A stretch of 64,000 nucleotides of DNA from Escherichia coli (GTDB lineage: Bacteria > Pseudomonadota > Gammaproteobacteria > Enterobacterales > Enterobacteriaceae). The notes beneath the pieces are model-generated. The model did not search any database, was not told where the DNA came from, and saw only the letters and a list, made by a program, of their open reading frames with translations. The position numbers were made by a program, and so were the translations under genes. The DNA is taken from assembly GCF_044324785.1 (NCBI RefSeq), contig NZ_CP172127.1. One strand, 5' to 3'. Shown here piece by piece: positions 20,193 through 28,708 of the stretch. The first letter of the stretch is position 1. Each line of letters starts with the position of its first letter.

Positions 20193-20220
20193 AAAAAAAA
20201 GCCGGCATCATGCCGGCCCA
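20193..20220 (-). terminator. Strong rho-independent terminator (minus strand) in the yedS-yedR intergenic region
   Basis: GC-rich hairpin GCCGGCATCATGCCGGC, followed on the minus strand by eight T. Confidence 0.6.
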
Positions 20221-20429
20221 AAAAATATAAACAAGACGATAAAAGGCTAATAACGGGGTTATCATGACACAGAAATCAAAAAAGGTATAATTGAATTCGC
20301 TGCTAATATATTGTTTAGGTGAATTAATAAAACCATTACCATAGATAATAATAAATCTTCATTGCTGTTTTTCCGGTAATTATTGCCGTTGCGCAAAAAT
20401 TATCTATTTGTTCAAAAAATGATTGAGTC

Positions 20430-20813: not shown

Positions 20814-20852
20814 AAACTGCTAAGGTTGCGACTCTTTGGCAACGGAGCGCGT

Positions 20853-21548
20853 ATGGACGTACAACACTGGCAGGCACAGTTCGAAAACTGGTTGAAAAAC
20901 CATCATCAGCACCAGGACGCGGCCCATGACGTATGTCATTTTCGCCGTGTCTGGGCTACGGCACAGAAGCTGGCGGCAGATGACGATGTCGATATGCTGG
21001 TGATTTTAACCGCCTGTTATTTTCACGATATTGTGATCCTGGCGAAAAATCATCCACAACGGCAGCGTTCTTCAATCCTGGCGGCAGAAGAAACGCGTCG
21101 CCTGCTCCGTGAAGAGTTCGTGCAATTTCCGGCGGAGAAAATTGAGGCCGTTTGTCATGCCATTGCCGCGCACAGTTTCAGCGCGCAAATCGCCCCCTTA
21201 ACAACGGAAGCTAAAATCGTCCAGGATGCGGATCGGCTGGAAGCCCTGGGGGCGATTGGCCTGGCGCGCGTGTTTGCCGTTTCAGGGGCATTGGGCGTGG
21301 CGCTGTTTGATGGCGAAGATCCGTTCGCACAGCATCGCCCGCTGGATGATAAACGCTACGCGCTGGATCATTTCCAGACTAAGTTGCTGAAGCTACCGCA
21401 AACCATGCAAACCGCAAGAGGCAAGCAGCTGGCGCAGCACAACGCGCAATTTTTAGTCGAGTTTATGGCGAAGCTCAGTGCCGAACTGGCGGGGGAGAAT
21501 GAAGGTGTCGATCACAAGGTGATAGATACGTTTTCACCCGTGGGCTGA
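20853..21548 (+). CDS. yedJ: HD-domain phosphohydrolase YedJ
   Basis: HD motif (CYFHDIV); start chosen at MDVQHWQ. Confidence 0.8.
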
Positions 21549-21614: not shown

Positions 21615-23033
21615 ATGCAGGAAAATATATCAGTAACCGATTCATACAGCACCGGGAATGCCGCACAGGCAATGCTGGAGAAACTGCTGCAAATTTATGA
21701 TGTTAAAACGCTGGTGGCGCAGCTTAATGGTGTGGGTGAGAATCACTGGAGCGCGGCAATTTTAAAACGTGCGCTGGCGAATGACTCGGCATGGCACCGT
21801 TTAAGTGAGAAAGAGTTCGCCCATCTGCAAACGTTGTTACCCAAACCACCGGCACATCATCCGCATTATGCGTTTCGCTTTATCGATCTATTTGCCGGAA
21901 TTGGCGGCATCCGTCGCGGTTTTGAATCGATTGGCGGACAGTGCGTCTTTACCAGCGAATGGAACAAACATGCGGTTCGCACTTATAAAGCCAACCATTA
22001 TTGCGATCCGGCGACGCATCATTTTAATGAAGATATCCGCGACATCACCCTCAGCCATAAAGACGGCGTGAGTGATGAGTCGGCGGCAGAACATATTCGT
22101 CAACACATTCCTGAACACGATGTATTACTGGCCGGTTTTCCTTGTCAGCCATTTTCGCTGGCTGGCGTATCGAAAAAGAACTCGCTCGGGCGGGCGCACG
22201 GTTTTGCCTGCGATACCCAGGGCACGCTGTTCTTTGATGTGGTGCGCATTATCGACGCGCGTCGTCCGGCGATGTTTGTGCTCGAAAACGTCAAAAACCT
22301 GAAAAGTCACGATAAAGGAAAAACGTTCCGCATCATCATGCAGACGCTGGACGAACTGGGCTATGACGTGGCTGATGCAGAAGATAACGGGCCAGACGAT
22401 CCGAAAATCATCGACGGCAAACATTTTCTGCCGCAGCACCGTGAACGCATCGTGCTGGTGGGTTTTCGTCGCGATCTGAATCTGAAAGCCGATTTTACCC
22501 TGCGTGATATCAGCGAATGTTTTCCTGCGCAGCGAGTGACGCTGGCCCAGCTGCTGGACCCGATGGTCGAGGCGAAATATATCCTGACGCCGGTGCTGTG
22601 GAAGTACCTCTATCGATATGCGAAAAAACATCAGGCGCGCGGTAACGGCTTCGGTTATGGAATGGTTTATCCGAACAATCCGCAAAGCGTCACGCGTACG
22701 TTGTCTGCGCGTTATTACAAAGATGGCGCAGAAATTTTAATCGATCGCGGCTGGGATATGGCAACGGGTGAGAAAGACTTTGACGATCCGCTGAATCAGC
22801 AACATCGCCCACGTCGGTTAACGCCTCGGGAATGCGCGCGTTTAATGGGGTTTGAAGCGCCGGGAGAAGCGAAATTCCGCATTCCGGTTTCGGACACTCA
22901 GGCCTATCGCCAGTTCGGTAACTCGGTGGTCGTACCGGTCTTTGCCGCGGTGGCAAAACTGCTTGAGCCAAAAATCAAACAGGCGGTGGCGTTGCGTCAG
23001 CAAGAGGCACAACATGGCCGACGTTCACGATAA
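21615..23033 (+). CDS. dcm: DNA-cytosine C5-methyltransferase Dcm
   Basis: 472 aa with the F-G-G motif ([11 protein letters not shown]), PCQ catalytic motif ([11 protein letters not shown]) and ENV motif (FVLENVKNL). Confidence 0.95.
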
Positions 23034-23484
23034 GGCCACACGCAGCAAAAATATGCGCGCGATTGCCACGCGTGATACGGCGATTGAGAAGCGCCTCGCC
23101 AGTTTGTTAACCGGGCAGGGACTGGCGTTTCGCGTTCAGGACGCGGATCTCCCCGGACGCCCGGATTTTGTCGTTGATGAATATCGCTGCGTGATATTTA
23201 CCCACGGCTGCTTCTGGCACCATCATCACTGCTATCTGTTTAAAGTGCCTGCGACTCGAACCGGGTTCTGGCTGGAGAAGATAGGTAAAAATGTTGAGCG
23301 CGATCGCCGCGATATCAGTCGCTTGCAGGAACTCGGCTGGCGCGTATTGATTGTCTGGGAGTGTGCGTTACGTGGGCGCGAGAAGCTGACGGATGAAGCG
23401 CTTAGCGAGCGTCTGGAAGAGTGGATCTGCGGCGAAGGAGCCAGCGCGCAGATCGACACGCAGGGGATTCATTTACTCGCTTGA
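23014..23484 (+). CDS. vsr: Very-short-patch repair endonuclease Vsr
   Basis: 156 aa starting [17 protein letters not shown]...; its 5' end overlaps the dcm 3' end in another frame, the classic dcm-vsr arrangement. Confidence 0.9.
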
Positions 23485-24393
23485 TGCGTCCTGAATAACG
23501 GGCGCAACTACGGGTTTGGCCGGGAAGAGATATTTTCCCAACGTGACCAGTACCACCGCGAAGACAATCACGCCGAGCGCCAGCCATTCAATCTTCGACA
23601 GCGTCTCTCCGCCCAGTCCCGTACCCAGCAAGACCGCGACCACAGGGTTAACGTAGGCGTAGCTGGTGGCGAGAGCCGGACTGACGTTGCGGATTAAATA
23701 CATATAAGCGTTAATGGCGATAATCGAACCAAACAGCGCCAGATAGCCGACCGCAAGGAAGCCTGAAAGGGAAGGGAGCGCCGTCAGTTTTTCACCCGCA
23801 ATCATCGACGCGATCATTAACACCACGCCTGCCGCAAGCATCTCAATCGCACCCGCCATCATCCCTACAGGTAAGGTAATGCGCGAGCCATAAACTGAGC
23901 CAAACGCCCAGCTAATCGAGCCGATTAAAATCAGAATCGCGCCCCACGGATTGCCGCTTAAATTTCCACCGCTATTGAGCATGATGATTCCGGCAAGTCC
24001 AATGGCGATACCCACCCATTCCAGTTTGCGCGTTTTAATGCCAAACAGGCGGCTGAAGCACAGGGTAAAGAGGGGCACGGTTGCAACCACTACGGCGGCG
24101 ATGCCGGAAGGAACATTTTGATGTTCGGCAACCGTTACCATGCCATTACCGACAGCCAGCAATAACAGGCCAATCAGCGCGGCATTGAGCAGCGGACGTA
24201 GCGGGGGGAGCTTGTGTCCGCGCAGTAGCAAAAATGCCAGCAATAAAATACCGGCTGCCAGGAATCGCACGCCCGCCATCATTAACGGCGGCCAGCTTTC
24301 CACGCCAATCCGAATGACAAAATAGGTTGAGCCCCAAATGATATACAACGCAAACAGCGCGCCAAAAAGCGGTAACAACTGGCGGAAACGCAT
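23473..24393 (-). CDS. yedA: EamA-family (DMT) transporter YedA
   Basis: 306-aa polytopic membrane protein; position. Confidence 0.85.
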   Translation of the reverse strand: MRFRQLLPLFGALFALYIIWGSTYFVIRIGVESWPPLMMAGVRFLAAGILLLAFLLLRGHKLPPLRPLLNAALIGLLLLAVGNGMVTVAEHQNVPSGIAAVVVATVPLFTLCFSRLFGIKTRKLEWVGIAIGLAGIIMLNSGGNLSGNPWGAILILIGSISWAFGSVYGSRITLPVGMMAGAIEMLAAGVVLMIASMIAGEKLTALPSLSGFLAVGYLALFGSIIAINAYMYLIRNVSPALATSYAYVNPVVAVLLGTGLGGETLSKIEWLALGVIVFAVVLVTLGKYLFPAKPVVAPVIQDASSE

Positions 24394-28618: not shown

Positions 28619-28708
28619 AACACATCAGATTTCCTGGTGTAACGAATTTTTTAAGTGCTTCTTGCTTAAGCAAGTTTCATCCCGACCCCCTCAGGGTCGG
28701 GATTTTTT
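28619..28708 (+). ncRNA. dsrA: DsrA small regulatory RNA
   Basis: AACACATCAGATTTCCTGGTGTAACGAATTTTTTAAGTGCTTCTTGCTTAAGCAAGTTTCATCCCGACCCCCTCAGGGTCGGGATTTTTTT matches DsrA as I remember it, including the terminator hairpin and U-tail. Confidence 0.9.

Follow-up and report, generated by a model that had tools for sequence, protein, structure and literature searches.

The 3′ end of dcm in a 64,000-nt stretch of Escherichia coli DNA (contig NZ_CP172127.1; hereafter, the window) overlaps the start of vsr by 20 nt, and we read it as the chromosomal E. coli dcm–vsr junction, at which vsr is probably coupled to its neighbour through the translation of dcm (rough probability of the reading as a whole, 0.85). 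The parts of this reading differ in firmness: the identity of the genes and the geometry of the junction are virtually certain, and a dependence of vsr translation on dcm translation is plausible and, in our judgement, probable. The overlap is no chance overlap of ORFs, because both products pass their family cut-offs, the junction is identical to that of K-12, relatives carry the same annotation and the geometry recurs in 71 of 80 species. The 20-nt overlap was already known, the arrangement having been described about 1990, and its recovery here matters little beyond confirming the dcm and vsr gene calls in the window. Biologically, the overlap pairs a mutagenic activity with its remedy: deamination turns 5-methylcytosine in CCWGG sites into T, and the T:G mismatches that result are repaired by Vsr.

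Structure of the dcm–vsr junction

The + strand at the junction reads ...CAGCAAGAGGCACAAC ATG GCC GAC GTT CAC GAT AAG... (ATG at 23014–23016) or, over a longer span, ...GCGTCAGCAAGAGGCACAAC ATG GCC GAC GTT CAC GAT AAG GCC.... The final dcm codons are CAT GGC CGA CGT TCA CGA TAA (H G R R S R stop), and vsr codons 1–7 are read from the same bases as ATG GCC GAC GTT CAC GAT AAg (Table 1). With the vsr ATG at 23014 and the dcm stop ending at 23033, the overlap is 20 nt long, so that Vsr residues 1–7 are encoded by the same bases as the 3′ end of dcm. The vsr frame is +1 relative to that of dcm, as 23014 − 21615 is 1399, which leaves 1 modulo 3. Six bases separate the Shine-Dalgarno-like AAGAGG from the vsr ATG, and the vsr-frame ORF in the ORF list is open from 22852 to 23484, with ATG 23014 inside it. 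The coordinates of the overlap, its 20-nt length and the difference in frame, all of which had been put forward in an earlier note on this DNA, proved exact when compared with the sequence and the ORF list.

Table 1 Features at the dcm–vsr junction, in window coordinates
Feature	Position	Strand	Basis or remark
dcm CDS (DNA-cytosine methyltransferase, 472 aa)	21615..23033	+	ORF list; NF007772 profile; similarity to K-12 Dcm
vsr CDS (very-short-patch repair T:G mismatch endonuclease, 156 aa)	23014..23484	+	TIGR00632; 1CW0 chain A
dcm/vsr overlap, 20 nt	23014..23033	+	Sequence; K-12 identity; annotation of K-12, Salmonella and Klebsiella
Shine-Dalgarno-like AAGAGG for vsr	23002..23007	+	Within dcm codons, including the Glu464 codon GAG
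dcm stop TAA	23031..23033	+	Made up of the third base of vsr codon 6 (GAT) and bases 1–2 of codon 7 (AAG)
Predicted mRNA hairpin around vsr SD, AUG and dcm stop	22983..23043	+	Folding energy compared with shuffles
Upstream extension of the vsr frame, from TTG 22852 (210-aa ORF)	22852..23013	+	Open frame inside dcm, not belonging to vsr

Profile searches identified both products. The Dcm product matched NF007772 (DNA cytosine methylase, CCWGG) with 951.7 bits against a cut-off of 710 over residues 1–469 of 472, also matched TIGR00675, and is 99% identical to K-12 Dcm, with three substitutions, none in the overlap. The Vsr product scored 181.4 bits against TIGR00632 (cut-off, 97.85; profile positions 1–119 on residues 1–118), and PDB 1CW0 chain A aligned to its residues 2–156 (E = 2e-104). 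It is 98% identical to K-12 Vsr, from which it differs by S45D, E84G and T131S, again outside the overlap. The residues that we take to be catalytic, zinc-binding or intercalating in 1CW0/1VSR (D51, H64, C66, F67, W68, H69, H71, C73, W86, D97 and C117) are all unchanged in the K-12 alignment; the substitutions at 45, 84 and 131 lie elsewhere. On the basis of 98% identity to the characterised enzyme, this Vsr would be expected to nick 5′ of the T in T:G mismatches (CTWGG/CCWGG). Among NCBI E. coli records, the exact 156-aa Vsr was present on 297 contigs and the exact 472-aa Dcm on 248.

In a 151-nt alignment of the junction, the first 100 columns (22940–23039, which include the SD, ATG, overlap and stop) were identical to K-12 MG1655, whose RefSeq annotation places dcm (b1961) at 2030899–2032317 and vsr (b1960) at 2030448–2030918, both on the minus strand and overlapping by 20 nt. 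This bears out the earlier description of the junction as the known K-12 arrangement. Reference annotations of K-12, a second E. coli strain, Salmonella and Klebsiella all carry the same vsr start; in the second strain, annotated by PGAP, the dcm/vsr overlap is likewise the same. A 2.1-kb region with features annotated as dcm, vsr, yedA and yedJ was matched in 5367 of 5426 complete E. coli genomes, as was a 251-nt query centred on the junction (again 5367/5426), and the closest complete RefSeq E. coli genomes reached at most 98.3–98.7% identity to this part of the window. In the ORF list, the neighbours are yedJ (20826–21548) and yedA (23473–24393, − strand). The order drpB–yedJ–dcm–vsr followed by a convergent yedA agrees with the annotation of K-12, Salmonella and Klebsiella and with tblastn across loci. 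The window thus shares with K-12 the overlap, the +1 frame, the gene lengths (472 and 156 aa), the upstream drpB–yedJ and a convergent downstream yedA that overlaps the 3′ end of vsr by 12 nt; it differs from K-12 by point differences alone, all outside the junction overlap.

Conservation of the overlap

A tblastn search of a plasmid collection with Vsr recovered Salmonella and Klebsiella sequences (chromosomal fragments filed as plasmids) with an annotated 20-nt overlap and the gene order drpB–yedJ–dcm–vsr–yedA(−). For a wider view, a degenerate DNA pattern encoding an 11-residue Vsr motif was run against GTDB r220, each species being represented by a single genome; the motif sits just downstream of the overlap, so the junction itself is unbiased by the scan. 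This yielded 106 Enterobacteriaceae loci, 99 of them with enough upstream sequence and 80 with dcm directly upstream. The 106 loci contain no representative of E. coli sensu stricto and none that is at least 95% identical to the window, E. coli being covered by the separate genome searches described above.

The dcm stop ends 20 nt past the vsr start in 71 of the 80 dcm-linked species genomes, including Escherichia sp. MOD1-EC7003, in which dcm has an internal deletion and the junction is intact. Six genomes have a 17-nt overlap, in which CAT AAY places TAA one codon earlier, and two, both Siccibacter, have a 35-nt overlap, in which GAC at codon 6 removes the TAA and dcm reads on. In the one remaining genome, that of Leclercia adecarboxylata NCTC13032, dcm is truncated by an early stop and ends 24 nt before the vsr start. 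The codon at the homologous vsr start was ATG in 68 and GTG in 6 of 80 aligned sequences, with ATG or GTG one codon off in another 6; this alignment set consists of 79 species genomes and the window, Escherichia sp. MOD1-EC7003 having been left out. The window has its synteny, its frame and the TAA within vsr codons 6–7 in common with other Enterobacteriaceae (Salmonella, Klebsiella pneumoniae, Citrobacter, Enterobacter, Kluyvera and others). These relatives differ in SD context and Dcm tail, some of them start vsr with GTG or one codon away, and the hairpin predicted for Escherichia is mostly absent from them. The 20-nt geometry is the family norm wherever dcm is present.

Methylase–vsr overlaps extend beyond the family. 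The m5C-methylase-to-vsr junctions of six unrelated plasmids all overlap: by 1 nt in P. syringae (TGATG, seen directly in the sequence), Aeromonas and Burkholderia (both from annotated coordinates), by 4 nt in Thauera, and by 8 nt in Neorhizobium and Sagittula. Overlapping methylase–vsr junctions are therefore the rule, and a length of 20 nt is the enterobacterial chromosomal signature. As in these plasmid modules of m5C methyltransferase, vsr and, in some, restriction endonuclease, vsr of the window lies directly downstream on the same strand and methylation is paired with T:G repair. The plasmid modules differ in their short overlaps (1, 4 and 8 nt), in a Vsr that is only 44–48% identical and in usually being part of a restriction–modification system, whereas Dcm is a solitary methylase. 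The junction also resembles known coupled gene pairs (NTGA/TGATG junctions; coat–lysis of phages fr and MS2) in that both genes point the same way, the second starts within the first ORF or directly against it, and the RNA-unfolding and ribosome-scanning models are equally applicable (PMC12548453); at 20 nt, its overlap exceeds the dominant 1- and 4-nt classes and falls short of the 38–50 nt of phages fr and MS2.

Probable coupling of vsr to dcm translation

Two reports that cite Sohail 1990 describe dcm and vsr as co-transcribed (PMC12907096, PMC4924334), full-length transcript sequencing assigned yedR, yedJ, dcm and vsr to a single operon (bioRxiv 10.1101/262964), and the dcm/vsr transcript can also take in drpB/yedR and yedJ. 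A simple scan, which is weak evidence, found no sigma-70-like promoter inside dcm, consistent with co-transcription from a promoter upstream of that gene. In the dcm-6 allele, codon 45 of dcm is changed to a nonsense codon, and Vsr activity is lost as well (PMC4444293, citing Dar & Bhagwat 1993). Measured by reversion, C-to-T mutation at Dcm sites rose ~55-fold with Dcm in the absence of Vsr versus ~4-fold with Vsr (PMC3467078). The accepted description of this gene pair is 'coupled'. Models of translational coupling comprise RNA unfolding and ribosome scanning/reinitiation, and short overlaps are generally preferred (PMC12548453). Our literature search returned no paper joining vsr, dcm and translational coupling. 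Dar & Bhagwat reportedly concluded that one mRNA yields Dcm and Vsr as separate proteins and that dcm must be translated for Vsr to be synthesised efficiently.

In the mechanism that we propose, ribosomes finishing dcm would pass over the ribosome-binding site of vsr and terminate at 23031–23033, where they would cover the vsr AUG 17 nt upstream. Such terminating ribosomes could promote vsr initiation by melting local structure (in Escherichia, the predicted −26 kcal/mol hairpin); alternatively, vsr could be initiated by reinitiation after a short backward scan. Vsr synthesis would then depend on dcm translation, so that a cell methylating CCWGG would also make the T:G repair enzyme. According to the MutL–Vsr paper, which cites Macintyre et al. 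1999, VSP repair takes place chiefly in stationary phase. This implies control in addition to simple co-translation; coupling therefore does not mean that Dcm and Vsr are made in fixed proportion.

The overlap could instead be incidental, with dcm reading to its first stop, the TAA of Vsr codons 6–7, and vsr being translated independently from its own SD. We consider this somewhat unlikely. It is favoured by the good spacing of the vsr SD, by poor conservation of the Dcm tail, by the reported stationary-phase bias of VSP repair and by the use of the same ATG alone in the 19 dcm-less species of our scan, in which vsr is presumably expressed. Because this ATG works without an upstream dcm in those species and has an SD of its own, coupling is not intrinsically needed. 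The dcm stop, moreover, is formed by vsr codons 6 and 7 (xxT AAR), and the same type of hexamer occurs in 14 of the 19 dcm-less loci, so where the stop falls is mostly a side effect of the Vsr codons. Against an incidental overlap stand the loss of Vsr activity in dcm-6 (PMC4444293) and the overlap of all six sampled plasmid methylase–vsr pairs; the dcm-6 effect, for its part, could be due to Rho-dependent polarity instead of translational coupling.

The overlapping codons bear on the same question from both sides. In the alignments, selection acts on the Vsr frame, in which MADVHDK is kept with synonymous third-base changes while the Dcm tail drifts, ending in QHGRRSR in E. coli, QRETVDGGRSR in Salmonella and READDNDGGCSR in Klebsiella (NDGGCSR was also seen). 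Against an incidental overlap, the tail has kept its length despite this drift, 70 of 80 sequences having 39 residues between the start of FGNSV and the stop. Third positions of vsr codons 5 and 6 also vary less beneath dcm: codon 5 ends in C in 73 of 80 dcm-overlapped sequences versus 8 of 19 dcm-less ones, and codon 6 ends in T in 76 of 80 versus 14 of 19 (Fisher p = 0.012, ignoring phylogeny). Within the 20 nt preceding the vsr ATG, the best-conserved part across the 80 sequences is the GAG core at −10 to −8, which serves both as the SD for vsr and as a Dcm Glu codon.

Predicted RNA structure over the vsr ribosome-binding site in Escherichia also speaks against independent translation. The hairpin at 22983–23043 has a folding energy of −26.4 kcal/mol (z = −3.2; matched by 2 of 200 dinucleotide shuffles) and is predicted to hold the AUG in its apical loop, the SD partly paired and the dcm stop in its 3′ arm. 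The z value for the same region is +0.75 in Salmonella and +0.87 in Klebsiella, and over 80 species the median is −0.3, with values below −2 confined to Escherichia lineages and two others. Pair counts in the hairpin showed no covariation beyond that of shuffles, and no Rfam family matched at the junction. We therefore rejected a conserved RNA element at the junction on the grounds of missing covariation, instability in Salmonella and Klebsiella, the median z of −0.3 and the lack of an Rfam match; nor did we find a conserved inhibitory structure over the vsr ribosome-binding site of the RNA-unfolding type. The lack of a conserved hairpin bears solely on which coupling model applies, as coupling by reinitiation needs no hairpin; the predicted E. 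coli hairpin would fit the unfolding model.

The same structure permits a further reading, which we regard as unlikely, combining a hairpin gate in Escherichia, a dcm stop that the choice of third bases in vsr codons 5 and 6 seems to keep in place, and a role of Vsr that is independent of the methylase. Here the predicted hairpin may lock the vsr SD and AUG, such that Vsr is made only behind ribosomes translating dcm. If true, a gate of this kind could underlie the reported growth-phase control of Vsr.

Position of the vsr start codon

Coupling through dcm translation, our preferred reading, takes vsr to start at ATG 23014, and several independent features place it there. The match to the Vsr profile starts with the first residue of the 156-aa form, which is residue 55 of the 210-aa ORF. 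The predicted duplex with the anti-SD is −5.8 kcal/mol for ATG 23014, compared with −0.9 for TTG 22852 and −2.0 for the ATG of Met14 at 23053. In the 19 dcm-less enterobacterial species, the vsr ATG is at the homologous place after a short intergenic spacer with its own SD. An example is Phytobacter massiliensis, in which yedJ ends in TAA and vsr begins 11 nt further on (TAA TAAGGGGCGCT ATG GCG GAT GTA CAT GAT AAG).

An in-frame ATG at +39 would allow vsr to start downstream at Met14 (23053), outside dcm and so without true overlap, a very improbable arrangement in view of the comparative data. That ATG lacks an SD (−2.0 kcal/mol), whereas Vsr residues 2–13 are conserved as protein with synonymous third-base variation in about 100 species; the start therefore cannot lie downstream of them. 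The crystallised 1CW0 chain A contains residues 2–156, and the MutL–Vsr paper mentions a mutant Vsr without the N-terminal 14 residues, which implies that native Vsr includes them. Profile coverage, SD strength and the comparative evidence together led us to reject the Met14 start.

A start upstream of ATG 23014, at TTG 22852, 22942 or 22963, would give a protein of up to 210 aa and an overlap with dcm of up to 182 nt, and we give it almost no credence. In E. coli and Klebsiella the vsr frame indeed stays open for 168 nt ahead of the ATG, and the TTGs at −72 and −51 show a measure of SD-like complementarity. However, the residues that such a start would add precede the whole of the profile match, which begins only at residue 55 of the 210-aa ORF. 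In Salmonella a TAG in the vsr frame directly abuts the homologous ATG, so that an N-terminal extension of Vsr is impossible there; in several other genera the frame is closed 9–24 nt upstream, the corresponding DNA is intergenic in the dcm-less loci, and the 156-aa form is the one found in annotations and in the crystallised protein. The longer ORF from TTG 22852 is thus effectively refuted by profile coverage, SD strength and the comparison of species. The earlier note had held that the overlap confirms the vsr start over the longer ORF; its choice of ATG 23014 over the 210-aa ORF stands, on the strength of the profile, the Salmonella TAG, the 19 dcm-less species and the 156-aa NCBI records, but the overlap by itself is not proof of it.

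Just as improbably, Vsr activity might come from a Dcm–Vsr fusion made by +1 ribosomal frameshifting in the overlap without separate initiation, as the adjacent (+1), overlapping frames would allow, but ATGGCCGACGTTCACGATAA holds no obvious slippery or hungry-codon motif, the vsr start has a conserved ATG/GTG and SD, Vsr of 156 aa is active on its own and yielded crystals, vsr does without dcm in 19 species, and a Dcm–Vsr fusion protein was reportedly excluded by Dar & Bhagwat in 1993.

vsr loci without dcm

An unexpected observation of the species scan was that 19 of the 99 species genomes have vsr, but no dcm, at the syntenic site; no Dcm-like sequence was present anywhere in these loci, to which the search for dcm was confined. 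Retention at the same site without dcm could point to a role of Vsr that is independent of an adjacent methylase, and the persistence of vsr alone in several genera is relevant to studies of Dcm-independent roles of Vsr. The gene order is yedJ–vsr–yedA in Kosakonia species, Phytobacter and several 'Enterobacter sp.', and no yedJ match was found upstream of vsr in Klebsiella oxytoca, K. spallanzanii and Pseudescherichia vulneris. In K. grimontii, which is closely related to K. oxytoca, dcm is in place with the 20-nt overlap, so the presence of an adjacent dcm varies even among close relatives.

vsr at loci without dcm or with a decayed dcm

In a GTDB r220 scan for vsr (one genome per enterobacterial species; L-numbers denote the loci), vsr was retained without its usual upstream partner in 19 of the 99 species genomes that could be evaluated: it occupied the syntenic site adjoining yedA, and dcm was absent from the whole locus. 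The Vsr proteins of these loci were full length (74–85% identity) and started at the same ATG as dcm-linked vsr. In 13 of the 19, yedJ immediately preceded vsr (Kosakonia, Phytobacter and several Enterobacter sp.); the other six, among them K. oxytoca, K. spallanzanii and P. vulneris, had no yedJ match upstream of vsr. Close relatives can differ, as dcm is missing from the K. oxytoca locus whereas K. grimontii carries it with the 20-nt overlap.

Two further loci combine an intact vsr with a decayed dcm. In Escherichia sp. MOD1-EC7003, dcm is deleted internally, leaving only Dcm residues 1–37 and 307–472 alignable, and the dcm–vsr junction is identical to that of the window. In Leclercia adecarboxylata NCTC13032, a premature TAG lies in dcm, 24 nt 5' of the vsr ATG.

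Displaced dcm stop in Siccibacter

The usual dcm stop, TAA, is formed by the last base of vsr codon 6 (GAT) and the first two of codon 7. Siccibacter colletis and S. turicensis (L024 and L079) have GAC at codon 6, so that this stop is lost and Dcm is extended by five residues (tail ...GRRTRQSDAQ), giving a dcm/vsr overlap of 35 nt. The junction represents a natural experiment in which the choice of a vsr codon sets the end of dcm.

Relation to other E. coli genomes

Across 24 kb of the window (10000–34000), the best identity to any of 5,426 complete RefSeq E. coli genomes was ≤98.7%, a low ceiling for E. coli given that number of genomes; for the dcm–vsr stretch, the best value was 98.3%. The Dcm and Vsr proteins of the window were nonetheless found exactly in E. 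coli records, Vsr on 297 E. coli contigs. The dcm–vsr region had no match in 59 of the 5,426 genomes. In strain CM13 (H50), the match starts only at query base 64, and a 'hypothetical protein' is annotated where dcm is expected. E. coli B strains are not known to carry dcm.

Other features of the window

Vsr differs from that of K-12 at three positions, none of which is known to be a catalytic or zinc-binding residue. The vsr stop (23482–23484) falls within 12 nt (23473–23484) shared with the 3' end of yedA, an overlap annotated likewise in K-12 and Salmonella. RNA genes were called by Rfam matches at gathering level.

Coordinates of features in the window and of selected vsr loci
Feature	Position	Strand	Remark
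RseX sRNA	20194-20283	-	Rfam; just upstream of drpB-yedJ-dcm-vsr unit, opposite strand
Vsr S45D	23146-23148		versus K-12
Vsr E84G	23263-23265		versus K-12
Vsr T131S	23404-23406		versus K-12
yedA	23473-24393	-	convergent to vsr
DsrA sRNA	28619-28705	+	Rfam
Three-tRNA cluster	61625-61924	+	Rfam; after uvrC and pgsA-like ORFs
Decayed dcm, MOD1-EC7003	L071:2588-3175		vsr intact
Decayed dcm, NCTC13032	L112:4696-5915		vsr intact
dcm-less vsr loci	L033:1170-1186 (example)		L013, L019, L021, L029, L030, L033, L037, L045, L049, L051, L053, L062, L065, L072, L073, L076, L102, L109, L111
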